From contig MEWJ01000020.1 in NCBI GenBank assembly GCA_001773385.1, positions 1 to 57,171 on the forward strand: a stretch of DNA of 57,171 nucleotides, written 5' to 3'. Numbering within the stretch: the first letter of the stretch is position 1; each line of letters starts with the position of its first letter. Shown here in pieces: positions 21,981 through 46,435 of the stretch. The position numbers were made by a program, and so were the translations under genes. Source of the stretch: a candidate division WWE3 bacterium RIFOXYD1_FULL_43_17 (lineage in GTDB: Bacteria; Patescibacteriota; WWE3; UBA101185; UBA10185). The notes under the pieces are model-generated. The model worked only from the letters and a program-made list of their open reading frames with translations, did no database searches and had not been told where the DNA came from.

Positions 21981-22380
21981 CTACAATCCTATCGTAAAAC
22001 ACATCTTTAAACGCTCCTAGAGCTAAGCATAGGTACACGAGCGTGGCAAAAAACTCAGCAATTTTATTAATTCCGAGAACGTGAAATAAAATGCAAGAAA
22101 CAAATAAAATTATGGCAAGAATATAAATGTGTTTTCGCTGAGACAGGAACCCATAAAAAAAAGCCCACAAACCTGCGAACGTCAGTGCTGCATATATAAC
22201 ACCAATAATACCGGATTTAATCATTACAAGTAAAAAAATTACTATTAATAAAAGGGGCGGTAATGTGGTACTAAACTTTTTCGCGCCAACGACACGCACA
22301 AAGAAAGTATCTATCGGAAGAAACAGTAAGATAAAGAAGACTAAATAAAGTATGTAAATAAGCGCGTTAAACGACATCAT
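21973..22380 (-). CDS. Small 4-helix membrane protein, unknown function
   Basis: 135 aa, almost entirely hydrophobic. 8-nt overlap with the start of the downstream gene. Confidence 0.5.
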   Translation of the reverse strand: MMSFNALIYILYLVFFILLFLPIDTFFVRVVGAKKFSTTLPPLLLIVIFLLVMIKSGIIGVIYAALTFAGLWAFFYGFLSQRKHIYILAIILFVSCILFHVLGINKIAEFFATLVYLCLALGAFKDVFYDRIVDE

Positions 22381-22413
22381 AGGTATGTTATCACAAGTTG
22401 AAGACGCCTCTGG

Positions 22414-24099
22414 TCATTCAACTTCCGTTCCAAATATTATTACACCGCCCTGAGAATACAAAGGGACACCTAAATGAGCGATAAAGAATCTGTATATATC
22501 CTCCCTCGAACTGATCCCCGGGTTTATCTCCTTAATACTTTCTAAAGAATCGTCGGAAATTTTATTAGAATAATAAATAAGATACTTTGGTCTGTTATTT
22601 AAAAACTCCTTTAGCCCTTCGTCTGAAATCAGACCACGTGAAAAGACATTGGTTTCGAAACCTGTCTCAAAATTTACTAAGTCCACTGGATTCATCAATA
22701 TATCCTCGTGGGATAATATCCAAAATATCGAGTAGAAGTCACCTTTAGGATACACCGCATAAGAAACACTGGTGGGAAATTTTTCCTTCACAAACGCAAT
22801 TTCGCTGGGCGGTTTATTTATATTTATAACTGGAATTTTTACCGTGAAAATAACAAAGTTTATAGCTATAAACAAGACAATGAAGAGAGTCTTTTGCCAT
22901 GTTTTTCCCGCCAAACTATATAAGTCCTGGACTAAGAATGAGTTGACTACCAGAATACAAAGGTATATTAATACCGACCACCTAACCAGTGTCCTGAACA
23001 CCGGTACTAAGTAATATAAGATATACGTAGGCGTGTAAATTTCTACACCGTTTACCGTAAACGATGGAGGTCCGGATATTAAAAGTATGCAAAGGATTAA
23101 AAAAAGACTGCGATAGATTGTAACCCTGTTAGCATAAACAGAATTGAATAATCCAAATTCCTTGTGTTTAAATTTTCTCATCAGTAAAAGCCACACAACT
23201 AGTGCGGCTCCGAAAATAAAATGCCAACCTAAGTAACTTCCAGCCATCTCTTGCTCTGTATAGTCGTCTGCAAGATAATATTTCGTGATTTCGATTTTCT
23301 TATGTACGTCTTCAGACAACTTTCCAAAAAATAGGGACTCCTTAGGGGGAATAAAGAAATACCACGGTCTAAAAGACAGGTTATACCAGTCTTCTACAGG
23401 CCTGAACACAACTTGCTTTTTTACAACAATCTCAGCATTCTGTACATCTTCGTAGTTTCCAAACAATGGAGTATTTACAAGGAACTGTTTCCCATAGACC
23501 GCTAAAAGCAAAGTCAAGATTGGGAGAACCAAGCAGATGGAATTGATGATAAATGATCTTACTGCGCGTTTGTATTCAACCCCAGCCAACATAATATTGA
23601 AGGCATTTAATAGAAGCGACACTATTAATGCAAAGAAACCGTAGTAATTGCTTATCATGAAAGAGGTGGCTACGAACAACCCGATCACAAGGGGTTTTGT
23701 GGCGCGCATGTAGAGAAAAAATGTAGCAGGAATAATAAATGTCATGTATAAAGCTGGCGTAACGGACTCTACCCTGTATATAAAATATATTGATGCGGAG
23801 TACAGCAAAGAAAATATTACTTGTAGGCTTCGGTGAATATTAAGTTTTCTGAACAACAAGTAACAAGCCGCAAAAGCTAAGAAGAATGCAACAATTACCA
23901 ACATATTATTTATGCAAACCGGATGCATGTATCTGTGCAAGAGACTGAATATAGTTTGAATTACAAAATCCGCATTTTTATCGGAAAGGTATATGTCGTC
24001 AGCGGGTCTAATTAAATTTGAGAAATACTTAAAATGGTATGCCAGAGTGTGGGCACTGTCGTTATACTGAAAGATAATGAACTGACAAACTTTATACAT
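22414..24099 (-). CDS. Polytopic membrane protein, GT-C/YfhO-like architecture, unassigned
   Basis: 561 aa. About 10 helices followed by a ~130-aa soluble C-terminus. The call rests on architecture only. Confidence 0.45.
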   Translation of the reverse strand: MYKVCQFIIFQYNDSAHTLAYHFKYFSNLIRPADDIYLSDKNADFVIQTIFSLLHRYMHPVCINNMLVIVAFFLAFAACYLLFRKLNIHRSLQVIFSLLYSASIYFIYRVESVTPALYMTFIIPATFFLYMRATKPLVIGLFVATSFMISNYYGFFALIVSLLLNAFNIMLAGVEYKRAVRSFIINSICLVLPILTLLLAVYGKQFLVNTPLFGNYEDVQNAEIVVKKQVVFRPVEDWYNLSFRPWYFFIPPKESLFFGKLSEDVHKKIEITKYYLADDYTEQEMAGSYLGWHFIFGAALVVWLLLMRKFKHKEFGLFNSVYANRVTIYRSLFLILCILLISGPPSFTVNGVEIYTPTYILYYLVPVFRTLVRWSVLIYLCILVVNSFLVQDLYSLAGKTWQKTLFIVLFIAINFVIFTVKIPVININKPPSEIAFVKEKFPTSVSYAVYPKGDFYSIFWILSHEDILMNPVDLVNFETGFETNVFSRGLISDEGLKEFLNNRPKYLIYYSNKISDDSLESIKEINPGISSREDIYRFFIAHLGVPLYSQGGVIIFGTEVE

Positions 24100-24115
24100 T
24101 TGGTATTTTTGCGTT

Positions 24116-26392
24116 TTATCCTTTTTTTAATAATTTTCCTTGAACAAGCTTTTCTCTAATAGAATATGAAATTAAAGCTATGAAAACGCCCGCCCAGACT
24201 ACTAAACCCACGTAAAGATATGACTGAGATCTATAGTAAAGTATAAGGTTAATATCGGTTCCCCCACTTTCATTGGTACTAATACAATCCTGGCACGTAT
24301 CTTTTAATTGTAGAGGGTCAATTATCCACCCGTTAGCATACTCATTCGCCACGAAGTGAGTATCGTTGAGAGTAGGTTTAGTGAACGCATACGTTAAATC
24401 GCGGGCATCAAAAAAATCGTTTGTAGAAATTGTGCCACTGTCGTAAGACTTTTTATCAGGAAATAAGAGCCAATCCTTGTCGTAATTTTTCAAAAAAACA
24501 AGTTCGGACTCATAATTCAGATTTTTTATTTGTATTTTGTATTTCAATGGTCCGATTTTATGAAATTCAATTACACCAAAATTTAAATATAGTAACGGCT
24601 TGGTACATTCTTCACGTAAGCTGTATAAAGATATAGCCCCGTTCTCAGTCTCAAAAGTATGAGCCTCCGAGATATCGTAATTTCTACTCAGTAAATCCTT
24701 GTATAACGAAGTAGGGATATCAGATTCTACATCTTCCCTTACAGCTATGTGGGTAACGCCCAAATCCCGCGCGTCACTGCAAATAGACGTTCCAGAGGTT
24801 ATGATGTCCTTATACAAATTTTCTCCAATACCACGGTAAGGAAGATTCGGTCCAATACCTTTTCTTAACGGCGACAATATGGAGTATCCCCAAACATTAG
24901 GTAAAAAGTCAGTTCCCAAATAATTGTTCAGTGCTGCATTAAACTTGTATTTACTCCCATTATTGGGAGCAGGGATCATAAAAATATTGCCTACGGTATC
25001 CCCATCTAAATAAGCTTTAGACTCAAAATAGTATTTTGGTATGTTTAAACCTTCCCATAACGGTCTGTACATAACAAAAGAGTAAGCTGAAAGTACTAAC
25101 GCAAAAAGGTAAATCATGTTCGTGGCCAAGCTAAATAGTCTGCTTTTACTTGACATAATTAGTGCGCCCAAGTAACTCAGAGTCACGGTGCTAAAAACAA
25201 AAACACCATAATACTTAGAAATAGGTCTTCTAAAAACTTTAAACCCAAAAACGTTATCATAAAACCAGTTAAACATTGCCGGAAGTGGGTAATTGGTACC
25301 TTTAGAAATGTATATGGAAATTATTAAAAGGGATAAAAATAAAATTAAATATTTACCTCGTTTTGCAATTAAGCCAATTAATGAAAAAATTATTAAGATT
25401 GGAAAAATTGTTAGATACGCAAATGAAACATAGTTTCGTGACTCCCCCACAGAATTGATTTGTCCTGACAAAATACTCAAGATAGACGCATTTTTCGACG
25501 CCACCTCTAACCCGGAAGTAAGGCTAGTCAAATCGTTCAAGTTGGCATAAATGGGTAGTATTGGCAAAAACGATAATATCCACCAACTGTTGGATAAAAA
25601 AAGTAGCAAAAAAACTAAAAACATTTTACTCACAAACTGTCGTATATCTTTTCTAAAAATTGCTGAGAATATTATCCCATATAGAAAAATTGTTATTAGG
25701 TTAACGTAGAAAACTCCCACATTAGAAAAAGATGGTGATGTTAGCGTAAAAATGCAAAACAACGCAAAAACATCTTTATACACAACCTTTCTGTCTTCTA
25801 AAACCTTATCGACTAACATAATAATTGCTGGTAACAAAGAGTAATTTATCAAGGCGTCAACGTGACCAGGAGAAATTAGCGACAAAAAAAATGGGGATGT
25901 GGCATAAAGTACGCAGCTTCCTACTAATATAAAACTATCGCCGGAACTTCTTTTGTTAAGTTTGAATCCTAGGTATCTTAACAGTGAGAACAAGCTAATC
26001 TGTGAAACAAATACAAGGATTGAAATATAAATGGCCGCACTCAAAGGACCATTAAGTCCTACTGCACTAAATGCAAGAAAAAGTAGACCTTTAGGAAATA
26101 AGGATGCTACCGAGAAAGATGAGTACCACCCATTATAAGTATTTATATCGTATACAGAAAATTGAGAGAAAAATGATCGCTTGACGTCGAAGAATGTTAC
26201 AAAGTCCCCCCTACCCACAATATCGTACTTCAGTTGACTTTGAAACCAGAGTAGGGGCGCTAATGCAACAACTAAAAATATCGTATACCTGATTATTAAA
26301 CTTTTGTTTCTGCGGCAAAATAACAATAACATTTTTTGATAATGACCTATCATATCCCCGCTGCTACTTTCTACATGTAATATACAGACCAC
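24116..26392 (-). CDS. Polytopic membrane protein with large extracytoplasmic domain, GT-C-like architecture, unassigned
   Basis: 758 aa. About 14 helices, a ~280-aa soluble region and a terminal anchor YVGLVVWAGVFIALISY. The track GTG start overlaps the upstream stop by 29 nt; ATG 26353 (MIGHYQK) is an alternative. Confidence 0.45.
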   Translation of the reverse strand: MVCILHVESSSGDMIGHYQKMLLLFCRRNKSLIIRYTIFLVVALAPLLWFQSQLKYDIVGRGDFVTFFDVKRSFFSQFSVYDINTYNGWYSSFSVASLFPKGLLFLAFSAVGLNGPLSAAIYISILVFVSQISLFSLLRYLGFKLNKRSSGDSFILVGSCVLYATSPFFLSLISPGHVDALINYSLLPAIIMLVDKVLEDRKVVYKDVFALFCIFTLTSPSFSNVGVFYVNLITIFLYGIIFSAIFRKDIRQFVSKMFLVFLLLFLSNSWWILSFLPILPIYANLNDLTSLTSGLEVASKNASILSILSGQINSVGESRNYVSFAYLTIFPILIIFSLIGLIAKRGKYLILFLSLLIISIYISKGTNYPLPAMFNWFYDNVFGFKVFRRPISKYYGVFVFSTVTLSYLGALIMSSKSRLFSLATNMIYLFALVLSAYSFVMYRPLWEGLNIPKYYFESKAYLDGDTVGNIFMIPAPNNGSKYKFNAALNNYLGTDFLPNVWGYSILSPLRKGIGPNLPYRGIGENLYKDIITSGTSICSDARDLGVTHIAVREDVESDIPTSLYKDLLSRNYDISEAHTFETENGAISLYSLREECTKPLLYLNFGVIEFHKIGPLKYKIQIKNLNYESELVFLKNYDKDWLLFPDKKSYDSGTISTNDFFDARDLTYAFTKPTLNDTHFVANEYANGWIIDPLQLKDTCQDCISTNESGGTDINLILYYRSQSYLYVGLVVWAGVFIALISYSIREKLVQGKLLKKG

Positions 26393-33006: not shown

Positions 33007-34068
33007 TTACTGCCCCCATCCATCCCTACTCAACTCCGCTGCATTAAAAAGTCCTCCAACGACCCTGCCCCACCCATACACCCACAACGTAATCCAACAA
33101 GCTACAGGATGAAAAAACCACGCAACATCATTCTTTTTTAAAAACCCGGCAAAACTCTGCACCACCACCGGCACAATCAAAACAGTAAACACCACAAACT
33201 TCACCATCCCCCACGGCTTCTTTCCACCCAAATCCAAATCGCCCCATCCGAACTCCCTGTCGCGACTTTTCAAATGAAACAGATAGTCTTTCACACGCCT
33301 TCTCTGTTTTCTCGCAAACTTTCCCACGTCACTTCCGCAAAAAGTATGGATAATTCCATTTTTAACTTTAATAAACTTCACGGAACCTTTTTCCTTAATT
33401 TCCTTAGCCAATATATCTATGTCGAACAAGTAATCGCCTTTAACCCTGCTTTTTAAAAATTCTGTTCTGAACACAGTTCCGTTTGCGCCGATTGTAGGTA
33501 CTCCTCTTTTGTCCAAACCCAGCAACAAATAATCTCCGAAATCTTTCTCATCGTGTTCAACCCCGGTCCATTTACCGGTTAACAAATTAACTCTGTCGTA
33601 ATTACCCAAAAACATCACAAGCGGATCGTTCATTCCGATTAGAGCGCAGTATCTGTCTATAAATCCGTCTTCTTTTCTCCAAACATATTTCCAGGGTTCG
33701 CTGCCCGCAGCTTCAGTATGTTTCAACAAAGGTCCCACCATCTGCCACAACCAACCACTATCGGGCAAAATATTATCCGAGTCAATAAGCGCAACAAATT
33801 CTCCGTGCGCAACACTTAGAGCAACGGCCTTTCCGGCCTCTCCCGTTTTTAATTTATTCTCAACAACAACTGCCTCATACTTTTTTGCAATTTCTAACGT
33901 TCCGTCTGTAGAGCCACCGTCAGCTACAATAATTTCAATTTTTTCTTTGGGATAGTTTTGCATTTTCACTGATTCCAGACAGTTTTTTAAAACTGAAGAT
34001 GCATTTAGAGTCGGTATTAATATGGATATTGTGGGGGTTCCGGACGTTTCTTCAGACTTGATTTCCAT
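33007..34068 (-). CDS. GT2-family glycosyltransferase with C-terminal helices
   Basis: 353 aa. ISILIPTLNAS, VADGGSTDGT and IDSDNILP. Hydrophobic C-terminus. Confidence 0.8.
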   Translation of the reverse strand: MEIKSEETSGTPTISILIPTLNASSVLKNCLESVKMQNYPKEKIEIIVADGGSTDGTLEIAKKYEAVVVENKLKTGEAGKAVALSVAHGEFVALIDSDNILPDSGWLWQMVGPLLKHTEAAGSEPWKYVWRKEDGFIDRYCALIGMNDPLVMFLGNYDRVNLLTGKWTGVEHDEKDFGDYLLLGLDKRGVPTIGANGTVFRTEFLKSRVKGDYLFDIDILAKEIKEKGSVKFIKVKNGIIHTFCGSDVGKFARKQRRRVKDYLFHLKSRDREFGWGDLDLGGKKPWGMVKFVVFTVLIVPVVVQSFAGFLKKNDVAWFFHPVACWITLWVYGWGRVVGGLFNAAELSRDGWGQ

Positions 34069-36654: not shown

Positions 36655-36696
36655 GAGCCGCGACGTTTAATAAAATAAACCCGCGGCTTACTTTTT
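36655..36696 (+). terminator. Putative terminator ending the second island transcription unit
   Basis: GAGCCGCG (36655-36662) pairs with CGCGGCTT (36682-36689, terminal G-U). The 19-nt A/T-rich loop is long. Followed by ACTTTTT. Confidence 0.45.
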
Positions 36697-36699
36697 ACT

Positions 36700-36792
36700 A
36701 AATGCGTATTCTACTTTTGTACTCAAATGCGTACTCTACTTTTGTACTCAAATGAGCACCACTTTTTCTAAATGAGTGCTCTACTCTTTTTT
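36700..36792. repeat. Four head-to-tail 20-25-nt direct repeats in the convergent intergenic region
   Basis: Units: AAATGCGTATTCTACTTTTGTACTC (36700-36724), AAATGCGTACTCTACTTTTGTACTC (36725-36749, 1 mismatch), AAATGAGCACCACTTTTTCT (36750-36769), AAATGAGTGCTCTACTCTTTTTT (36770-36792). The last unit overlaps the radical SAM stop codon. GAGCAC (36754) and GTGCTC (36776) form an inverted pair. Confidence 0.6.
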
Positions 36793-38391
36793 AGCAGCAG
36801 CACTTCCGAACATACTCTTGATTGCGTTTCCCCAAAACTTCGGAGAGATCCAATTAACGCGTGTTTGTTCTTTATCAAAGTCCAGTAAGTGCCCTATTAA
36901 CTTCCACGCAGAATAACCTAAAAATTTGATGTCACTCCAATTTCTTATAGACAATATTTTTCTAAAAATATACTGAGGAGTAAAAAAAGAAGAATACAAA
37001 GATTGGGTCAACTCGTACAACCGTTCGTTTGAAAAAGGTATTTTCATAACCGGAGCTCTCATATCAAACTTCTCGTAGTCCTTCGCACCGACCTGCAACC
37101 AATCATTTTCCAAACACTCTTTGTATAAAGGAGTTCCGGGATAAGGAATCACGATTGTTGCCTGCATGGTATCTACATAGCCTTTTTTAAATAAGTCTTT
37201 CGCCAAATCTATGGTGTTCTGAGCCATTTCTTCGGTTTCCCACGGATACCCAAGCATTACCGTAACATGAGGCTCCAATCCTGCCTTTTTGGCCATTTTG
37301 GCACCTTCTGCAATCTCTTCTACCAGTAAGCCCTTATCCAGCCTATCCAAAGTGACCTGGTTCGCCGACTCCATCCCGTACAAAATAAATCTAAAGTTGG
37401 CTTTGCCCATTAAGTCATAATATTCTGAGGTAAGTGCGTTCAAACGCATATTACATCCGAAAACAACTTTTTTGTTATACCCGGACTCAATTAACAGCTC
37501 GCAGAACTTTTTCAAAGGTGGGCCGATGAATAAAGTTCCCGCGTCATCAAATATTTCTTTTACTCCGTAGTTGTCGACGACATGTTTTACCTCGGCAAAA
37601 AGTCTTTCAGGAGAAAATCTTCTGTAAAATCCTTTGGGATTTAAAGTATGATCCCAAACACAAAATGTACATCTGTTCCACCAACAATCTCTGCCTGAAT
37701 ACATGTAGGTCGCCGGTGTGTATTTATAATTCCCGTTCGCATACGCGTAAAGTTTCCATTTCGTAAGGTCGCGGTCAACAAATGGAAGATCATCGAGGTT
37801 GTGCTGTAACTCCAAAGGACCGCTCTGGAAGTACGCTTCTTCTCCGGTTATTCCGGATTTGTGCAGTTTTAGCCACTTAGGATCTACCGATACTTTCGGG
37901 TCTCCTTTTCTTCCGTAAATTCCTCCGGGTAAGTAGCTATTGTTCTTTATCGCATCGGCCATGTCGCTTAAAAGAAAATCGTAATCACCACCTGTGATTA
38001 TGTAGTCGACCTTACAGGCATCCAGCGTTTCTATGGGGTTCCATGTAACGTGGTCCCCTACCAAAATCACCGCCATCTCCGGAAATTTTTCTTTTAGTTC
38101 GTCGATAATTTTCCAGTGAAACTTCAAAACCGGTGCTTTGGTCTCCATCATCAGATAATCGGGCTTTTCTTTTTCCAGCTCTGACAGCCATTCCGTGTAA
38201 GTTTTCTTCTCGGCTATACCGTCACTCCAGACCACGTCGTATCCGCGTTCTTTGGCCAGAGAGGCCGCGTACGCCGGAACCATGGGGTAAATGTATGTGG
38301 GAGCGTTGAAATACTGAAACTGCCTGTTCTGGGATAATAAAGGAACTCCTTTGTACTGGTCTATTGGAGGATACCCGATAAGAATTTTCAC
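36781..38391 (-). CDS. B12-binding-domain radical SAM enzyme (class B type)
   Basis: 536 aa with a GTG start. N-terminal Rossmann-like cobalamin-binding-type region (DYLMMETK, VILVGDHVTWNP, IITGGDYDF). Cluster motif SGRDCWWNRCTFCVW. Downstream IFDDAGTLF and FILYGMESANQ resemble the radical SAM core. Confidence 0.75.
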   Translation of the reverse strand: MKILIGYPPIDQYKGVPLLSQNRQFQYFNAPTYIYPMVPAYAASLAKERGYDVVWSDGIAEKKTYTEWLSELEKEKPDYLMMETKAPVLKFHWKIIDELKEKFPEMAVILVGDHVTWNPIETLDACKVDYIITGGDYDFLLSDMADAIKNNSYLPGGIYGRKGDPKVSVDPKWLKLHKSGITGEEAYFQSGPLELQHNLDDLPFVDRDLTKWKLYAYANGNYKYTPATYMYSGRDCWWNRCTFCVWDHTLNPKGFYRRFSPERLFAEVKHVVDNYGVKEIFDDAGTLFIGPPLKKFCELLIESGYNKKVVFGCNMRLNALTSEYYDLMGKANFRFILYGMESANQVTLDRLDKGLLVEEIAEGAKMAKKAGLEPHVTVMLGYPWETEEMAQNTIDLAKDLFKKGYVDTMQATIVIPYPGTPLYKECLENDWLQVGAKDYEKFDMRAPVMKIPFSNERLYELTQSLYSSFFTPQYIFRKILSIRNWSDIKFLGYSAWKLIGHLLDFDKEQTRVNWISPKFWGNAIKSMFGSAAAKKE

Positions 38392-38397
38392 CTGTTT

Positions 38398-38403
38398 AGT
38401 ATA
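38398..38403 (-). promoter_or_regulatory. -10-like hexamer 6 nt upstream of GTG 38391 (radical SAM gene)
   Basis: The minus strand reads TATACT then AAACAG then GTG. It sits in a 47-nt gap after the ferredoxin stop. Confidence 0.25.
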
Positions 38404-38438
38404 TATAAAGGGACGCCCAATCTCAAAGTTGAGGTAAA

Positions 38439-38696
38439 TTATTTCTTCTCAGGATAGAGTACGTTGCCTTCCAGATCTTCAACAATTATCGCAGTAGTGG
38501 GACAGGACTTCGCCCCTTTTATAATTTTTTCAGCTTCATCCCACGTACCTTCTTTCGCGTACACAATTCCATCGGAGTCGAGGTCAAAAGTTTCGGGCGC
38601 GTGAATTATGCAGGTCGCCGCACTTATGCACAGCTCATTTATAACTTTAATAATTACTTTCGAGTTTGGATTTTTATATGTAACTACTTCTTTCAT
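38439..38696 (-). CDS. Small single-cluster ferredoxin (3Fe-4S/4Fe-4S type)
   Basis: 85 aa. CISAATCIIHAPETFDLDSDG ... SCPTTAI fits the C-x5-C...CP pattern of small ferredoxins that serve as redox partners. Confidence 0.7.
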   Translation of the reverse strand: MKEVVTYKNPNSKVIIKVINELCISAATCIIHAPETFDLDSDGIVYAKEGTWDEAEKIIKGAKSCPTTAIIVEDLEGNVLYPEKK

Positions 38697-38697
38697 A

Positions 38698-39711
38698 TCA
38701 ACCTCCTAAATAATTTCCCGTAGTTTTATCAACACGTCTAAGTTTCAATTTTGGTTTGTGAGGAAATCCTATAATGAAGTTGCCGCCGTAAACAATATGT
38801 GTGAGGAAAATTCCTACCACAACGTAAGCTGCCCCAAGAATTGTTTTGTCTTTTTTATAAGCTCTGTAACCTTCAGAGATCAAGAATAATAAGTATAAAG
38901 CTAATCCGCCGAAATATAAGTTCCATAAAAACGGAAAGGCTGACGCAAAAATAGGACCGAAGATTAGGCTCACCAGAAATATTGAAGGTACAAAAAAAAT
39001 AGGTAAACGCGAAGTTTCGGGGTAAATACGTGCAAATTGTCCCCTGTGACGTCCGTATCTCGATATTTGCTTTAGATAAGGGATAAACAGCTTCCTTCGG
39101 TGATGGTAGACGACAGGGGACGGGTCGTAATTAAACTTCCTTCCGTGTGATTTTACGAGTTCCAGGCATAGTTTGGTGTCTTCTCCGGGCCAAAATTCTA
39201 TAGGGAACCCCCCTGCCCTTTCAAAAGATGCCTTCCGTACAAACAGGTTAACGGTGGGGTAGTCAGATATTTCCATACTTTTTCCGGGTTTATGCCTGAA
39301 AACTGTTCCCGCACCCGACATCCAAGACTCCAGCACTCTTCCGGACATCTTTTCCAGTAAACCCGCATCTTTGGGGGTAACTGCAGGTCCGCCCAGTGCA
39401 TACACTTCGGTGTTTTCAAAAATTTCAACTGCCCTGTCCAACCAGTCTCTTTCCGGATAAGCGTCGTCGTCCAAAAAGGCGAGAATATCTCCGGTAGATT
39501 TAGCGGCTCCGTAATTTCTTTTTTCTCCCGGACCTATGGGACCCGAATGTATCAAAATAAATCTGGTGTCCTGAAAATCAAACTTTTCTTCCTCGTCGGT
39601 AATAATTATCACTTCAAAATTTTGATAAGTTAGCTCTTTAAGGTGTGTTATATTTTCCTTCAAGAACTCATTTATTTTTCTGACGGGAATAATAATGCTG
39701 AACTTAGTCAT
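38698..39711 (-). CDS. GT2-family glycosyltransferase with C-terminal membrane helices
   Basis: 337 aa. FSIIIPVRKINEF, GPGEKRNYGA and FLDDDAYP, followed by 3-4 helices. Confidence 0.8.
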   Translation of the reverse strand: MTKFSIIIPVRKINEFLKENITHLKELTYQNFEVIIITDEEEKFDFQDTRFILIHSGPIGPGEKRNYGAAKSTGDILAFLDDDAYPERDWLDRAVEIFENTEVYALGGPAVTPKDAGLLEKMSGRVLESWMSGAGTVFRHKPGKSMEISDYPTVNLFVRKASFERAGGFPIEFWPGEDTKLCLELVKSHGRKFNYDPSPVVYHHRRKLFIPYLKQISRYGRHRGQFARIYPETSRLPIFFVPSIFLVSLIFGPIFASAFPFLWNLYFGGLALYLLFLISEGYRAYKKDKTILGAAYVVVGIFLTHIVYGGNFIIGFPHKPKLKLRRVDKTTGNYLGG

Positions 39712-40537
39712 TATTTAGTTCTCCGGTGTTTACCCTCATTTGAAGTTCTTCATCGTAGATCCATTTCCGCTTACTGGAGTCGTCGTAATATTTTAATATC
39801 TTTAATCTGTAAAAAACAGCTAAGGTGTCCATAACCATATTTCTTATGTGTTTATCAAAAAGAAACTTAGGAGAAAACATAGACTTGCCAAACTCAACGG
39901 TTACATAAACGGGAGCTTCATATATTTTTTTGAAACCAAGATAATTAGCAACTGTCAGCAGCTCGATATCAAATGCAAATTTTTTAATAGCTAATCTGGG
40001 TAAAACTTTAACAAGAACTTCTCTTTTCATCACTTTTAGTCCTGTTTGTGTGTCTCCTAATTTAAGCCCGAAAAGCATTCTTACCAAGGTGTGGTACCCC
40101 CAGCTATAAATCTTCCTCACAAAAGGATAATTAACCTTAGACACCGGGTGCTTCTTGCTCCCGACAATAATGTCCGCTCCGTACCACTCCATGTGCTCCA
40201 ACAACATTGAAATCCCGTTTGGATTTATATCCATTCCCGCGTCGATGAAAGAAACATAGTCACCTTCGGCTCTTGCCATTCCGTATCTTATTGCGTAGCC
40301 CTTGCCTTTGTTTGTCTCATACCCGAATACTTTTAGTTTTTTATTTTCCAGAGATTTCGCAATGTCATATGTTTTATCGAGCAAACCGTCGACGACAACA
40401 ATTATTTCAAAATCCCATCTTGTCTGAAGCAACGTGTCCAGAATATTTTCAAGATCTTGTTTGATTGTTTTTTCTTGTTTATAGGCAGGGACAATTATTG
40501 AAACAAGTTTTTCAGATTTCGTTTGCTCTTTTTCCAT
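39704..40537 (-). CDS. GT2-family glycosyltransferase, polyprenyl-phosphate glycosyltransferase-like
   Basis: 277 aa. VSIIVPAYKQEKTI, VVVDGLLDKT, NKGKGYAIRYG and FIDAGMD. Confidence 0.75.
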   Translation of the reverse strand: MEKEQTKSEKLVSIIVPAYKQEKTIKQDLENILDTLLQTRWDFEIIVVVDGLLDKTYDIAKSLENKKLKVFGYETNKGKGYAIRYGMARAEGDYVSFIDAGMDINPNGISMLLEHMEWYGADIIVGSKKHPVSKVNYPFVRKIYSWGYHTLVRMLFGLKLGDTQTGLKVMKREVLVKVLPRLAIKKFAFDIELLTVANYLGFKKIYEAPVYVTVEFGKSMFSPKFLFDKHIRNMVMDTLAVFYRLKILKYYDDSSKRKWIYDEELQMRVNTGELNND

Positions 40538-41789
40538 TGTTACCTACTATAAAGAATACAGTAAGAAGTACTAAGCTGATTATACCAGCATATATGTCCG
40601 CCCTGATTATGTCATACAAGGTTGAGTGATTTGAGGTTATTAGAAAGTACTGAACTGCTAGACCCGGTAGTAACAACAAAAACACGGAGGTTCTGCTGAC
40701 GGCCAAAAAGAAAAGAATGAGAAAGTTTATGACTATATAAAGTCCGATGAAAAGAGAGAACATGGGAAGGTACTCTACCGAATTCATAAACCTAACTCCG
40801 AAAAATAATCTGGTAAGAAAAGAGGGAAAAACGGAAAAGGCTACGAGTCCTCCTGCAACCAATAATAATTGTAAAGATAAAAATTTAAAAAACGCCCGGC
40901 CGTAATTTAAACCGCGCACAGCCAAAGAAGAGATTGTAGGAAACATCACGGTAGTTACAGCACCTGCGCCGAATAAAAAAATCTTTCCCAAGGTTACAGT
41001 TCCTGCGTAATACCCTGCCATCTCAGGATCAAAATATTTCTTCACAAGGATTAGGTCGATATTATTTAAAAACATGAGTCCAAAATTCACAAACATTACC
41101 GGCAAGCTAAACGCAGCCAATCTTTTGTAATCCTGCACCAGGCTAATATTTTCAAAAACGGTGAGGTTTTTGCGTAATATAAAAAACCCGGTAATCATCG
41201 CCAGCACACCGGCAACGAACATTCCTCCGAATGCTCCGGCCAGCTTAAATCCCAAAAAAATAGCAATTGCTGAAAAGGCAAAGCGGTACACACTTGCTAC
41301 TACGTGATAAAACGCGTAAGCACGGTATCTCAATAATCCCTGAAGATATGCAGGAGGAATTGCACCTACAAAAGTTAATCCCATTAAAGTGCCGAATAGT
41401 GCAATAATTCCCGTATCGCTAATCTGCAGCTGCTCTGAAATACGGAATCTTAATATATAAACTGCCAGGGAAATTCCCGCTCCGACTAGAAGGGACAGCA
41501 AAAGTAATTTCCAGTATAGTGCCGTAAGTTTTTTAGAATCCTGCCTCGAAGAAAGTTCCGAAACATATTTTACCAGCGACACGCCGAACACCCCCGCCGG
41601 AACGCCAACCAGATAGGAAAGTGATATTAAAACATTAAACGTTCCAAAGTCTGCTACAGGAAGAGTTCTTCCTAAAACAAACTGGACAAGATACGAAAAA
41701 ACCGCTGCAAAAACACTGCCCGATCCTATGTACACAGTTCCCATTAAATATCTGTTACTCTTCACTTTTTGTATAAACGCACCGATCAT
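40512..41789 (-). CDS. MOP/Wzx-type flippase
   Basis: 425 aa with ~12-14 hydrophobic helices. Composition and length are typical of polysaccharide-biosynthesis (MOP) proteins. Confidence 0.6.
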   Translation of the reverse strand: MIGAFIQKVKSNRYLMGTVYIGSGSVFAAVFSYLVQFVLGRTLPVADFGTFNVLISLSYLVGVPAGVFGVSLVKYVSELSSRQDSKKLTALYWKLLLLSLLVGAGISLAVYILRFRISEQLQISDTGIIALFGTLMGLTFVGAIPPAYLQGLLRYRAYAFYHVVASVYRFAFSAIAIFLGFKLAGAFGGMFVAGVLAMITGFFILRKNLTVFENISLVQDYKRLAAFSLPVMFVNFGLMFLNNIDLILVKKYFDPEMAGYYAGTVTLGKIFLFGAGAVTTVMFPTISSLAVRGLNYGRAFFKFLSLQLLLVAGGLVAFSVFPSFLTRLFFGVRFMNSVEYLPMFSLFIGLYIVINFLILFFLAVSRTSVFLLLLPGLAVQYFLITSNHSTLYDIIRADIYAGIISLVLLTVFFIVGNNGKRANEI

Positions 41790-43381
41790 AAAGAAGTTCT
41801 CTCGTAGACTTTATAAACTTCAACCCCGCGCACAAAAATACTATCCACATATCTGAGACCAAATCTTTTCTCTTCCACCGAGATATCGTCCCAAACAGGA
41901 TATACAAAATACCTTGTTTTCACGGCAAAAGGTGATAAATCCTCGATAACGGCAAATCCTCCTATTTCGCGGAAAAACGGGTGTATCTGGGTATAATATT
42001 TTTCCTGAAACGCGACGGTGAGTGTTTTCTGGTAATCAGTTCCGTTCATAATTTTTTCCAGTGAGGTGTCTCCGTAAACAGGAACCGTCCCGTCCACAAT
42101 CATTTTATTTTTGAAATAACTGAGCACTTCTCTCTCCCCGATTAGCCATTTAGGTTCCAATACATTTATTCCTCTTTTAAGGCCGCCGAACATCTGGTTG
42201 TAATACGACATGTAATCAGGATGAAGATACAGTACCGGTATGGCAGCAACGACTATCAAAGGAATAAATTTGAGAAAACTTCTACCCTTGATTTTTTCCA
42301 ACAGCCAAATCCAAAATAAAGACGTGATTAAAGACAACATCATAATGTTCGGCAAAATGTACCTATCCAGTTTTTTTGTCGGGATTATTAACTGAGCAAA
42401 ATAAAACACTACGAAAAGCAGGGTGTAGCATAAAAATTTGCGGTGTCCCTCACTAAATATTTTTTTCCAGAAGACTGCGGTTCCGATTAAGCCCAAAATT
42501 AACAGGTACGATGACCTTAGGCCCAAAACAACAAAGTAGTAAAAAAAGCCCGGGTCTTCGACCAATTTTCCGAAGTAGAACTGAATATGCTCCCTTTCTA
42601 TTCCTATCTCCGAAACCCCACGGTACAACGCTGCAAGTGCCTGCCCCGGAAATGCCCACATAGCGGGCCATCCGGCCATAAATACGCCCAGAAACACCAG
42701 TAGCCACAGTCCGATTTTGGGTAAAGCAGACACGATGTTTTTACGCGCCTCTATCAATAAGACTAGTCCCGCGTAAGGAAACATAAACAGTGCCGAAGTC
42801 TTGGTTAAAAAGGCCAGACCCGCAAACACGGCAGAAACAACAAGGCGTTTCTTATTACCGGGTTCGAGCGTGTAATAGTAGAGCCACAAGAACGAGGCTA
42901 ACATGAAGGTCGACATCAAACCTTCCAAATGAAACTCACGTGTCAAAGCAATGTAGAACGGTTCCAATGAAAGTAGTGCGGCAACAAGTAAAGCTTTTCT
43001 TGTCCCAAACAATTTTCTGAGCACAAAAAACGATAGTCCTAACGTAACGCCAATCGCTATTACAACAAAAAGTTTCTGCACAAAATGAAGCTGAAAAATC
43101 ATCTCAATACTATTTTCGGCGGGATTACTCTCGGCATAAAAGTTATATACTTTGATTGCAGCAGTACCGAGCCACATCAAAGTAACACCCGGGTGATATT
43201 TTTGAATTGTCTTCTCCAAATCCCAGGTGAAAACGCCGGTTCCAAAATCGTAACTCCGCGCCTTCCATTTCCATACGTCGGTGTTGAATGTATCGTGGCC
43301 CAAATCGGGCAACCGCGACACAATAAATAAAAGGACAAAAAGTATTTCAAATATGTATTTTTTTATAATTTTCAGCATCAA
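41786..43381 (-). CDS. ArnT/PMT_2-like GT-C membrane glycosyltransferase
   Basis: 531 aa with ~11 helices. YHPGVTLMWL, LEPFY, FLTKTSALF and PTKKLDRYILP blocks are shared with 44861..46435. Confidence 0.6.
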   Translation of the reverse strand: MMLKIIKKYIFEILFVLLFIVSRLPDLGHDTFNTDVWKWKARSYDFGTGVFTWDLEKTIQKYHPGVTLMWLGTAAIKVYNFYAESNPAENSIEMIFQLHFVQKLFVVIAIGVTLGLSFFVLRKLFGTRKALLVAALLSLEPFYIALTREFHLEGLMSTFMLASFLWLYYYTLEPGNKKRLVVSAVFAGLAFLTKTSALFMFPYAGLVLLIEARKNIVSALPKIGLWLLVFLGVFMAGWPAMWAFPGQALAALYRGVSEIGIEREHIQFYFGKLVEDPGFFYYFVVLGLRSSYLLILGLIGTAVFWKKIFSEGHRKFLCYTLLFVVFYFAQLIIPTKKLDRYILPNIMMLSLITSLFWIWLLEKIKGRSFLKFIPLIVVAAIPVLYLHPDYMSYYNQMFGGLKRGINVLEPKWLIGEREVLSYFKNKMIVDGTVPVYGDTSLEKIMNGTDYQKTLTVAFQEKYYTQIHPFFREIGGFAVIEDLSPFAVKTRYFVYPVWDDISVEEKRFGLRYVDSIFVRGVEVYKVYERTSL

Positions 43382-44904
43382 CGGATCATCTCCTCGACAG
43401 TGATATACGGGCCTATCCTGCCCTTATTTGAAACTTCAAAAATAGCCCGGCCCGAGGAAACACCTTTGTTTAATTCTATGTAATAATACCTCGTTCCTTT
43501 CGGTAATTTTGTTGGATCCTTTGTCGCGTTATTAAACACGTACTTTGAAACCGACTCCGCGTCCGAACTTCCGTAAACTACTCTCGTGCCTAAAGGAACT
43601 TCCGTTTCTAAGAATTTTTTCAGGTCAAGACGGGTGTCGTTTCTCAAAAATCTTACAGCGTTAAAAACCGAAAAATAGAACGGCGGTAAAAATAGTAAAA
43701 GCGCTATCGGAAAATAAAGAGGCTTCATTCCCAAACTCACTTTGTTCATTGCCCACACGGAAAAGTATCCGAATATTATTGAGACGAACGGATACATGAC
43801 GAAATAGTATTGTGAGCGGCTTTTTTCAAATCCGGAAATATAGTAGATAAGCGCGTACGCCGGAATTATTAAAAACATGAGTGAAACGTCAAATCTCGAG
43901 AATGTCCCTTTCAAAAATCTTATTAGTACAATACCTGATGTTAAAAATAGAGCAGCTAGAATCGTATAACCCAGATCGTCCGCTATTTTAAAACTCATAT
44001 CGGTGAAAAACTTATTTACGTGCTGAGCAAAATCCACGGACCCGACATTGGCAAACTGCCAAAACGCTCCCACTGCAGTGTCTTTCCGGCTGAAAGTTTC
44101 ATAATCCAGCGCCGCGTACGGGGTACCCAATAAAAACCCCAAAAAGGCAAAAATCCCGGATAAAAAGAGGTTCAAAATTGTCTTAAAATAGGGAAAATCC
44201 CCCCTTGTTTCCGATAACCGCATTTTCACCAATACCCAGCGTAAAAACGCGGCCAGAGGCACTGTAACGGCTCCCAGACCCCCATTATATTTGTTCGAGG
44301 CTGCTATTCCTATAAACAGCCCTGACAACATGTAGTCTATGGGGTATCCCTGAGTGATAATACGCGCGGCAAAGTAAATTCCCCAGGACAGGAAAAAAAG
44401 CATCGGCGCATCGGGCAGCGAATAGTGCGAGTGCCAGACATGAAATGGAATCACGGCAAAAGCCAGGGCCGAGAGCAGACCCACCTTTTCGCCGAACAGA
44501 ACCTTTCCTGTTTTGTATATCGGAATGACAGTTAGCGCCCCAAGTACTGCTGCAAAAACGCGCGTAATAAAATAGAAAACGACGGTGTCATCCCACATTA
44601 ACGGAAATATCTTAATCATAAAATTCTGAAAATTGTAATCGATGGCAAGTTCTCGGATCTTAGCGAATGCCAGAAAAACAAAATAGTTAGCGTAAATAAA
44701 AAAGTGGGGCCAATCGAAATGCCCGGGATTCGGTTCAAACCTTACTCCAAGAGCCGATTGAACAATTGTAGATTCGTCCGGGTGAAAAATAAAAGGAAAG
44801 CCGTGACTTATTCCTGCCAGTCTTAATATTAGGGCAAGAAATATTATCAGGTAGATGAGACTACTTGTCTTCCTTGACATATATTCTCCAATATTCCAAT
44901 CCAT
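43378..44904 (-). CDS. GT39-like (ArnT/PMT_2) GT-C membrane glycosyltransferase
   Basis: 508 aa. First-loop HPDESTIV, then YKTGKVLFGEKVGLLSALAFAVIP, typical of GT39. An alternative ATG at 44880 would shorten the overlap. Confidence 0.65.
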   Translation of the reverse strand: MDWNIGEYMSRKTSSLIYLIIFLALILRLAGISHGFPFIFHPDESTIVQSALGVRFEPNPGHFDWPHFFIYANYFVFLAFAKIRELAIDYNFQNFMIKIFPLMWDDTVVFYFITRVFAAVLGALTVIPIYKTGKVLFGEKVGLLSALAFAVIPFHVWHSHYSLPDAPMLFFLSWGIYFAARIITQGYPIDYMLSGLFIGIAASNKYNGGLGAVTVPLAAFLRWVLVKMRLSETRGDFPYFKTILNLFLSGIFAFLGFLLGTPYAALDYETFSRKDTAVGAFWQFANVGSVDFAQHVNKFFTDMSFKIADDLGYTILAALFLTSGIVLIRFLKGTFSRFDVSLMFLIIPAYALIYYISGFEKSRSQYYFVMYPFVSIIFGYFSVWAMNKVSLGMKPLYFPIALLLFLPPFYFSVFNAVRFLRNDTRLDLKKFLETEVPLGTRVVYGSSDAESVSKYVFNNATKDPTKLPKGTRYYYIELNKGVSSGRAIFEVSNKGRIGPYITVEEMIR

Positions 44905-46435
44905 TAACGTAAAGTGAAGAATCTTTTCTGAACCTTGTACCGCTTTCCAGAACTTTTTCCGGAATTTCCTCGTTTATTCCTAATACCAGGAGTTCGTAAT
45001 CGCTTACCCCGTTGACCCTTATATCTGCAACCTTAGAGTTTGAGTAGATGGCTTTCATGGGTTTTGTGTCTATAAAACCAAGTTCCGGCTCGTTGCCGTA
45101 CCTATTGATTATGTAGTCTTTAAGGGCGGGAACTGCTATGCCGAAAGGCTTTTGGGCAATAATAGTGTTGGCCGAGTTAGCCGTACCGAACAAAGGGCTC
45201 GTGTAAGTAAAGTAATAAGGAAAGTCCGTGATGGCAGGCACGATGTAAAAAAGTGTAAACATGAAAAGGGCGACGCTCATAAAAACCTTTTTTGATTTTG
45301 AGGTTTTCAGGAATGAGTAAAATCTTATGATTCCGTACGATGCTAATAGGGTTAAAAATGGATAGAGGGGAAGCATGTACCTGTCGAGTTTTTTAGAAGG
45401 ATAGAACATGATAAAAAAATATCCGAGATAGAACAAAGCGAGATAAATATACGGATTGTGATATTTAGCCTTAATATTTTTCAACACGTTGGAAAAAGAG
45501 TTTACACATCTCATGAGACAAAGAATCAAACCCGCAATAAGAAACGGCGTCGATTTAATAAGTAACACTAATGGATAAAATAATAATCCGGCGTCCTGAG
45601 TTGTTTCTCCGAACACTATTTGCTCGTGTCCTTTTCTTATACCTACTCTTTCGGACTCGGCAAAAATTTCGGACAGGTAGTAAACCGGTCTTACCCACAA
45701 CGCGGGAAAGAGTACGAAGGTTGTTACGATAAATGAGCCGAGTATTGTGAAAAAATAGTTTAGGAGCCCCTTTAAATCTTTTTTATTTGCAAAATAAGCA
45801 GTAGAAAAAAGAAGAACAAAAAAGAGTGCCCCTATTCCAATGCTTTTAGTTAAAAACGAAAGCGATAGAAAAACGCCGGCTAATATCGACTGCTTGTAAC
45901 TAAAACTTTTCAGGTTCAACCAGCTAATCAACAAACCTATAAGTACAAACAAGGCCAATAAGACGTCCATGTGGTAAAGGCGCGAATTTCCCATAAAAAA
46001 AGGCTCGAGAGAGAACAAAAATACCGAAAAGTAGGCAATTTTGAACCCCACGACTTTGGAAAGGTAGTACAAAAGAATAAAGGTCAGAACCAGCTGCGCT
46101 AACACTACCGAATATTTGGCTACGGTATTGAAGGCTATAAAATTGTACTGATCGTAAGTGGTTACACCGGTAATCTGTTTATATATTTCTATGGGCACAC
46201 CGGTAAGCCACATTAAGGTCACGCCCGGATGGTAGTGCTGATAAGTGCGTTCAAAGTCTCCTGATTTTAACCCAACAATAAATTGCTGAGACCTGTAATG
46301 CCAATTAACTCCGTCGGGATTTATCTCATCGGGACCCAACATAATGAAACGAGTCAGACCGAATACGATAATAAAAAAAACGAGAGCTACAGACCTGTTT
46401 TTAAAAAGAGCCGCCAGGCGTTCCAATACTTTCAT
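44861..46435 (-). CDS. ArnT/PMT_2-like GT-C membrane glycosyltransferase (paralog of 41786..43381)
   Basis: 524 aa. YHPGVTLMWL, LEPFF, FLTKSIGIG and PSKKLDRYMLP blocks occur in the same order as in the paralog. Confidence 0.6.
   Translation of the reverse strand: MKVLERLAALFKNRSVALVFFIIVFGLTRFIMLGPDEINPDGVNWHYRSQQFIVGLKSGDFERTYQHYHPGVTLMWLTGVPIEIYKQITGVTTYDQYNFIAFNTVAKYSVVLAQLVLTFILLYYLSKVVGFKIAYFSVFLFSLEPFFMGNSRLYHMDVLLALFVLIGLLISWLNLKSFSYKQSILAGVFLSLSFLTKSIGIGALFFVLLFSTAYFANKKDLKGLLNYFFTILGSFIVTTFVLFPALWVRPVYYLSEIFAESERVGIRKGHEQIVFGETTQDAGLLFYPLVLLIKSTPFLIAGLILCLMRCVNSFSNVLKNIKAKYHNPYIYLALFYLGYFFIMFYPSKKLDRYMLPLYPFLTLLASYGIIRFYSFLKTSKSKKVFMSVALFMFTLFYIVPAITDFPYYFTYTSPLFGTANSANTIIAQKPFGIAVPALKDYIINRYGNEPELGFIDTKPMKAIYSNSKVADIRVNGVSDYELLVLGINEEIPEKVLESGTRFRKDSSLYVNGLEYWRIYVKEDK

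Follow-up and report, generated by a model that had tools for sequence, protein, structure and literature searches.

A two-domain radical SAM gene in a glycan locus

The window analysed here is a 57,171-nt stretch (positions 1 to 57,171 of contig MEWJ01000020.1, assembly GCA_001773385.1) from the candidate division WWE3 bacterium RIFOXYD1_FULL_43_17, whose assembly (59 contigs, 863 kb in total) has a completeness of 93.6%. The window is a glycan locus over its full 57 kb, where genes were counted for at least nine glycosyltransferases of GT1/GT4, six of GT2 and six of PMT_2 (GT-C) type, besides three flippases and nucleotide-sugar enzymes. We focus on one gene of this locus, at 36781-38391 on the minus strand, which encodes a 536-residue radical S-adenosylmethionine (SAM) enzyme, hereafter rSAM. 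The protein looks like an ordinary representative of its known enzyme class, and its partnership with a glycosyltransferase is unusually strict; it would most likely perform a radical reaction on a membrane-linked surface sugar.

The open reading frame (ORF) of rSAM is intact and starts with GTG. Between this GTG and the TGA upstream in the same frame there is no canonical start codon, and the homologues share the N-terminus MKI(A/L)IGYPP at the same start. The nearest homologues that bear a name belong to candidate division WWE3 and the Patescibacteria group, and identity across Patescibacteria is 60-91%. The original prediction, made from the letters of this DNA, had given the gene a possible -10 element of its own. 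A weak promoter-like TTGAGA-17-TATACT does lie at 38398-38426 (minus strand), with 10 of 12 matches and TATACT ending 6 nt before the GTG, but matches of this kind are no more frequent in the region than chance would give (9 observed, 8.2 expected). They carry no statistical weight, and the promoter claim is not supported.

According to Pfam, NCBIfam and an AlphaFold2 model (predicted local distance difference test score, pLDDT, 77.4; predicted template-modelling score, pTM, 0.79), rSAM consists of a B12-type Rossmann domain (residues ~1-160), a linker, a radical SAM barrel (~230-430) and C-terminal helices. The protein has no transmembrane segment. Radical_SAM (PF04055) matches residues 234-397 with 64.8 bits against a cut-off of 29.5, and alternating β/α elements run over residues 260-430 of the model, as in a partial TIM barrel. 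In addition, the EIFDDAGT that is invariant in the rSAM family aligns with (F)FDDDTF of relatives and corresponds to the GGE-type SAM-binding motif. Foldseek matched the model to AprD4, MgmA, TsrM, OxsB, CysS and TokK, each with a probability of 1.0. The above-threshold Pfam match and the fold matches to B12-type radical SAM enzymes bear out the architecture that had been proposed for the 536-residue protein, and its radical SAM fold and motifs can be taken as shown or nearly so. Binding of a [4Fe-4S] cluster and cleavage of SAM are predicted for it.

The protein has only seven cysteines, at positions 126, 236, 241, 244, 297, 313 and 426. None of them forms a C-terminal cluster, and the sequence contains neither CX3CX2C nor a SPASM domain, in agreement with the earlier observation that no SPASM-like cysteine cluster is present. 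An auxiliary cluster made of C297, C313 and C426 was considered and rejected, because only two of the three, C297 and C313, show wide conservation and C426 is mostly replaced by alanine.

The sole cluster-type motif is CWWNRCTFC (C236-WWNR-C241-TF-C244; 37660-37686, minus strand), with CX4CX2C spacing. This unusual spacing had been proposed to mark the real cluster site, and the homologues agree. All 120 closest homologues (71-100% identity) keep CX4CX2C, mostly as an identical CWWNRCTFC; none has CX3CX2C, and no alternative triad of that kind is conserved. In the alignment, C236, C241 and C244 occupy the same columns as the canonical triad of more distant relatives (e.g. CPYRCTFC), with one extra residue after the first cysteine, so that residues 236-244 hold the three cysteines of a radical SAM enzyme. 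Within the clade the loop length varies: CX4 (CWWGKC, CPWHKC), CX7 (CWWRKDGGC) and CX10-19 all occur, and one sub-branch has reverted to CX3. The representative P0128 was compared with 119 relatives, few of which carry source-given names and those mostly archaeal; of these, 77 have CX4, 16 have CX3 and 14 have CX7. In the archaeal relatives CX3 is confined to the P0128 sub-branch and the majority have CX4. A quick maximum-likelihood tree, which we use only for this grouping, joins the family of the candidate phyla radiation (CPR), the archaeal CX4 sequences and the loop-length variants in one clade (Shimodaira-Hasegawa-like approximate likelihood ratio test, SH-aLRT, 99), with the CX3 sequences outside.

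Inteins typically occupy functionally critical sites. In rSAM homologues P0122, P0123, P0125, P0149 and P0247 the coding sequence is interrupted by inteins with LAGLIDADG endonucleases. The intein of P0125 sits exactly between CTF and the last motif cysteine, which serves as its +1 residue, and an intein inside the motif is a sign of a critical site; the other four were not placed so precisely. Four full-length members of the clade (P0143, P0145, P0147 and P0154) lack all three cluster cysteines (e.g. RDSDWGQSSL) and are possibly non-catalytic paralogues.

The CX4CX2C spacing by itself is not novel. It is already known in OxsB, a solved cobalamin-dependent radical SAM enzyme, and several motif-spacing variants are catalogued at RadicalSAM.org and accepted in the superfamily (PMC9204698, PMC9477430). 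OxsB (PDB 5UL2-5UL4), from oxetanocin biosynthesis, is the sole structurally characterised B12-type radical SAM enzyme known with CX4CX2C (PMC9204698). It is a non-methylase and, as described above, a confident fold match. It differs from rSAM in its length (~730 residues), its extra N-terminal domain and its nucleotide substrate, and gives no significant sequence match to rSAM.

Family assignment and the B12-like domain

Placed in the NCBIfam model set, rSAM scores best with HpnJ (TIGR03471), at 153.7 bits, far under the cut-off of 577.6. The next model is BchE at 88 bits. The methylase models all stay at or below 58 bits (PhpK 57.5, MJ_0865 45, HpnR 36.6). HpnJ is also the best model for ten more distant relatives, none of which passes the cut-off (highest score 368 bits). 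The original prediction had reasoned that class B radical SAM enzymes typically methylate unactivated carbons. For rSAM this is too general, since the best models are the non-methylases HpnJ and BchE, and a B12-type domain is no proof of cobalamin.

HpnJ, which belongs with the HpnI glycosyltransferase and the HpnK deacetylase, has the same two-domain layout as rSAM. HpnJ identity and a hopanoid function were considered and rejected because the score is a quarter of the cut-off, squalene-hopene cyclase is absent from the source genome (no match in a SQHop_cyclase_C profile search) and the glycosyltransferase beside rSAM, GT2a, does not match HpnI. In addition, rSAM carries CX4CX2C, in contrast to the CX3CX2C of the relatives closest to the HpnJ model, and its context is polyprenyl-linked glycan or protein glycosylation instead of hopanoids. 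By sequence, rSAM is not HpnJ; it is best described as an uncharacterised enzyme from the HpnJ-like portion of the B12-domain radical SAM class.

In PDB searches, run with rSAM alone and with a profile, just two sequences matched, both weakly: MgmA (9CCB, E 7e-9, over the barrel) and AprD4 (6FD2). MgmA/QCMT (TIGR04014), the methyl-coenzyme M reductase glutamine C-methyltransferase, is the better of the two. It differs in its canonical CPGNCTFC and its protein substrate, and its model gives 45 bits versus 360 on rSAM. AprD4, a 1,2-diol dehydratase of aminoglycoside sugars, shares with rSAM a B12-like Rossmann domain and would share a sugar substrate, and it is the top fold match (E 5e-17, template-modelling score 0.72 on target). 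rSAM might thus be an AprD4-type cobalamin-independent sugar dehydratase or oxidase, with a Rossmann domain that is structural or substrate-binding only. Both AprD4 and ArsL are Rossmann-domain radical SAM enzymes that do not bind cobalamin (PMC12931638), and many genomes that carry rSAM have neither of the cobalamin markers NrdJ and PduO. We regard this alternative as improbable. The AprD4 family model (NF033070) reaches 38.5 bits against a cut-off of 500, an AprD3-like reductase partner is neither present at this locus nor conserved beside rSAM elsewhere, and the QNRQF loop of the Rossmann domain is invariant.

This loop follows strand 1 of the N-terminal B12-binding-like domain (37912-38391, minus strand), which scores below the threshold of PF02310. 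The full stretch LSQNRQFQYFN (residues 19-29) is invariant, and its QNR core is common to the wider clade. In solved structures of B12-type radical SAM enzymes the loop at this position faces the corrin, and the LSQNRQFQYFN loop may do the same. The genome of the source organism encodes a B12-dependent NrdJ (644 bits) beside a PduO-type cob(I)alamin adenosyltransferase (contig C59:15276-18224), which indicates that the organism handles cobalamin. The profile of these two markers across other carriers, given below, is a caution and not a decision. Whether rSAM itself depends on cobalamin stands, in our estimate, at about even odds.

Another feature of the source genome concerns the cosubstrate. 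No SAM synthetase was found in this 93.6% complete genome with either the bacterial MetK model (TIGR01034) or the archaeal type (PF01941), in spite of its four radical SAM genes and numerous SAM methyltransferases. The organism may import SAM.

The GT2a partnership in bacteria and archaea

All genes of the cassette around rSAM lie on the minus strand. Three PMT_2 (GT-C) glycosyltransferases (41786-46435) stand upstream and are followed by a Wzx-type flippase (Polysacc_synt; 40512-41789), which overlaps GT2b (39704-40537), a DPM1/GtrB/PgfS-like GT2 glycosyltransferase and probable polyprenyl-phosphate sugar synthase. GT2b in turn overlaps by 8 nt GT2a (38698-39711), a GT2 glycosyltransferase with a C-terminal membrane part. 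Between GT2a and rSAM lies a small ferredoxin gene. On the other side of rSAM, GT2c (33007-34068), a GT2 glycosyltransferase with a membrane tail, is the usual next gene in relatives and is parted from rSAM here by an island of small ORFs.

For comparison, one genome per GTDB species was scanned, and the best 80 of at least 394 stretches encoding relatives, all at least 60% identical, were examined. The order (PMT_2 GT-C)-Wzx-GT2b-GT2a-(ferredoxin)-rSAM-GT2c is near-constant in these 80 loci. GT2b precedes GT2a in most of them, the flippase takes the same position in 39 of the 80, and the PMT_2 genes keep the same order in WWE3-type loci. Where at least 1.5 kb of upstream sequence was available (63 loci), GT2a ends within 450 nt upstream of rSAM on the same strand in 41 and within 3 kb in 52. 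The loci also repeatedly contain GT-C/TPR proteins, a DegT aminotransferase, a hexapeptide acyltransferase, NAD epimerase/dehydratases and a sugar C-methyltransferase. In 14 of the 80 CPR loci a 143-170-residue membrane protein with DLDH and H..WE motifs comes after rSAM (L005:10571-11002, L031:10639-11109, L034:2402-2896, L035:5510-6022); the CPR representative tested has no Pfam match.

The partnership is also visible in genome content. Four queries, namely rSAM, GT2a, GT2c and the ferredoxin, were run against one set of 401 sampled Patescibacteria genomes. rSAM is present in 41 of them with a patchy distribution (8 of 12 in its own family, scattered elsewhere), and GT2a in 42, namely all 41 rSAM carriers and one genome with just a 107-residue fragment. 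This co-occurrence makes GT2a an obligate partner of rSAM; related genomes are not independent, and we therefore give it without a P-value. GT2c was rejected as an obligate partner, as its 28 genomes include only 23 of the 41 carriers, plus 5 non-carriers.

The link of rSAM to glycan genes that had been drawn from this window thus stands across the 80 loci, and it extends to archaeal glycosylation loci (see below). The accompanying description of rSAM as the terminal gene, converging on the small ORFs, is correct for the window, but in relatives GT2c follows directly. rSAM stands at an operon end here because the island was inserted locally. The small ORFs lie on the plus strand at 34.9-36.6 kb. 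Only 0-1 of the 80 related loci contain homologues of them; they are a lineage-specific insertion between rSAM and GT2c, not substrates. It had been speculated that these neighbouring small proteins are modified by rSAM, which would make it a maturase of proteins or of ribosomally synthesised and post-translationally modified peptides. Apart from the proximity of the small ORFs, weak matches to ApyD (59.5 bits) and rSAM_ocin_1 (45 bits) point in this direction. These scores are far under the cut-offs of 750 and 282, rSAM has no SPASM domain or auxiliary cysteine cluster, and no conserved short ORF accompanies it in the other loci. With so few homologues of the small ORFs, we consider the maturase explanation effectively refuted.

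The ferredoxin (85 residues; 38439-38696, minus strand) is of a single-cluster type with exactly three cysteines and an alanine at the middle position (CxxAxxC...CP). It matches Fer4_13 with 36.3 bits (cut-off 24.5), and Fer4_19 and Fer4_15 as well. Its ATG lies 1 nt past the GT2a stop, with a GGAGG within the 3' end of GT2a, and 47 nt separate the gene from the rSAM GTG downstream. In tblastn searches the ferredoxin was found in 44 of 75 related loci, directly adjacent to rSAM on the same strand in 32 of them, with the motif C(I/V)(S/G)A(A/G)xC...SCP conserved across its loci. The suggestion that it is a dedicated reductant is therefore right in that the gene lies 47 nt upstream and is a recurrent neighbour, and goes too far in the word dedicated: the family occurs in 98 of the 401 genomes, three copies exist in the source genome, and it is missing from entire lineages of carriers. 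On the same counts it was rejected as an obligate partner. rSAM often has the ferredoxin as a partner but also occurs without it, and where present the ferredoxin is likely the electron donor; its three cysteines suggest a 3Fe-4S type. In some WWE3-type loci a ~310-residue CYC..RC protein without a Pfam match lies between ferredoxin and rSAM (L008:6993-7925, L010:5103-6035, L016:7206-7973).

The nearest relatives outside the CPR family (~43-55% identity) are named Ca. Hecatella orcuttiae, Hodarchaeota, Pacearchaeota and "archaeon", with one Omnitrophota. In three archaeal loci a GT2 glycosyltransferase of 318-323 residues lies directly upstream of the rSAM homologue, and it shares 34% identity with GT2a along the entire protein, its membrane part included (E 5e-67, 8e-69 and 8e-58). 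Two of these three loci have the order STT3/AglB, Glycos_transf_4 (AglH-like), other genes, GT2a and rSAM, which is that of an N-glycosylation cluster. One AglB-type locus also has a polysaccharide deacetylase, which adjoins the GT2a-rSAM pair and recalls HpnK. In three further loci rSAM is accompanied by Glycos_transf_4, PMT or AftD-type GT-C, LPG_synthase_TM, GT2 and phosphodiesterase genes. Taken together, the archaeal and CPR synteny indicates that the GT2a-rSAM pair is a cross-domain module of lipid-linked glycan pathways. The archaeal glycan clusters carry a second, different B12-domain radical SAM gene (L089:9484-11025, L091:2784-4178), and the Hecatella locus contains a YdjM (PF04307) gene (L089:3526-4029).

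A proposed radical step in lipid-linked glycan assembly

Our main explanation, to which we assign a probability of about 0.6, is that rSAM is a soluble two-domain HpnJ-like enzyme which, paired with GT2a, edits a sugar of the glycan. We are more confident of the general statement that the pair would perform a GT2a-coupled radical tailoring of a glycan-pathway sugar, which seems to us quite probable. From synteny and co-occurrence, the substrate would be tied to GT2a. According to this proposal, GT2a would work at the cytoplasmic face, where a glycan linked to polyprenyl-(di)phosphate, or a different membrane acceptor, would receive a sugar from it; rSAM would then edit the sugar that GT2a has added. 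For this reaction the [4Fe-4S] cluster, held by C236, C241 and C244, would receive an electron from the adjacent three-cysteine ferredoxin where that gene is present, and rSAM would reductively cleave SAM to a 5'-deoxyadenosyl radical, which would abstract a hydrogen from the sugar. The Wzx flippase might then export the intermediate, and the GT-C glycosyltransferase (PMT_2) in CPR bacteria, or AglB in archaea, would transfer the glycan to surface targets.

Action of rSAM after GT2a is preferred because of the gene order, the amphipathic, aromatic-rich C-terminal helices of the protein, which are weak evidence, and the lipid-bound substrates of the characterised class members HpnJ, Grs and Cds (PMC13459092). 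HpnJ works on a lipid-bound sugar once a membrane glycosyltransferase has acted (PMC13459092), as is proposed here for rSAM. Alternatively, rSAM may act before GT2a on a soluble nucleotide sugar and so make an unusual donor that only GT2a transfers. The strict pairing with GT2a would be equally well explained, related loci contain nucleotide-sugar enzymes (a 4,6-dehydratase, DegT, an acetyltransferase and a C-methyltransferase), and a protein without a transmembrane segment would suit a soluble substrate. The order GT2a-(ferredoxin)-rSAM and the archaeal order AglH-like-GT2a-rSAM fit successive steps on a lipid carrier better, and together with the lipid-bound substrates of the class and, weakly, the C-terminal helices, they leave the donor-first order only a small chance.

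Several observations weigh against our explanation. Besides the nucleotide-sugar donor that rSAM could make instead, GT2a has no match to the HpnI model, and the parallel with HpnI-HpnJ is architectural only. The match of rSAM to B12-binding (PF02310; residues 34-134) is 24.7 bits, or 27.1 in a second search, under the cut-off of 32.1; rSAM homologues score 34-40 bits, above it. Neither NrdJ nor a PduO-type adenosyltransferase was found in 17 of 40 other carrier genomes, of which 15 are of high quality, closed genomes among them. The cluster loop of the AlphaFold2 model has a pLDDT below 50. A three-cysteine ferredoxin is expected to hold [3Fe-4S], whose potential may be too high for reducing a radical SAM cluster. 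In addition, the top fold match, AprD4, is an enzyme without cobalamin binding (PMC12931638), and literature searches for the family in CPR bacteria and for the family with AglB returned no paper on this clade.

As for the chemistry within the GT2a-coupled scheme, a non-methylating rearrangement, for example a ring contraction of the HpnJ/Cds type, is our tentative first choice, at well under even odds. It is favoured because HpnJ and BchE are the nearest models and because the glycosyltransferase-radical SAM pairing resembles HpnI-HpnJ. Cobalamin-dependent C-methylation is doubtful but possible. In that case SAM-derived methylcobalamin would methylate a sugar carbon radical on the GT2a product, in parallel to MoeK5 and GenK/GenD1, which act on sugars. 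The majority of characterised B12-type radical SAM enzymes methylate, and in sequence similarity networks at stringent thresholds HpnJ falls into one cluster with the methylases Fom3 and MoeK5 (PMC9204698). The use of cobalamin by the source organism (NrdJ, PduO) and the plentiful methyltransferase genes of the locus are also consistent with a C-methylase. The low scores of the methylase models next to those of HpnJ and BchE, the carriers in which the other cobalamin markers searched for are missing and the sub-threshold PF02310 match of rSAM argue against it. Dehydration, oxidation or epimerisation would account for the rest.

A more specific version of such a rearrangement can be envisaged, in which the pair installs a hexose or hexosamine on a membrane-linked glycan and the ring is then contracted or rearranged by HpnJ/Cds-like radical chemistry. 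The surface glycans or glycoproteins of CPR bacteria, and those of DPANN and other archaea, would then contain a pseudo-sugar that is carbocyclic and resists glycosidases. We think this version unlikely; if true, the pseudo-sugar would be a modification not described in protein-glycosylation pathways. An archaeal analogue, likened to rSAM by its described chemistry only, would be Cds. To our knowledge, calditol lipids occur in Sulfolobales only. Cds (Saci_1489), the calditol synthase of Sulfolobus acidocaldarius, is a radical SAM enzyme for which contraction of a lipid-bound hexose to a cyclopentyl head group has been proposed (PMC13459092).

The conservation of rSAM is unusual: the protein keeps 60-91% identity across classes of a fast-evolving phylum and is locked to one glycosyltransferase in both domains. 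This conservation and the lock to GT2a point to rSAM as the mark of a radical step in the assembly of lipid-linked glycans that has not been described. The cells of CPR bacteria and DPANN archaea are tiny and depend on a host, and attachment is probably mediated by their surface glycans. The identity of the product would add a new reaction to the biochemistry of glycans or N-glycosylation, and several thousand sequence clusters, which form a clade of the B12-type radical SAM class, would gain a function.

Two further features of the window lie outside the cassette. Three large ORFs (728, 561 and 758 residues), none with a Pfam match at E ≤ 1e-5, occupy an AT-richer part of the locus at 19794-26392. 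A 25-nt tandem repeat (2.7 copies, 93% matches) lies at 36689-36754, flanked by the terminator of the small-ORF island on one side and by the stop codon of rSAM on the other.

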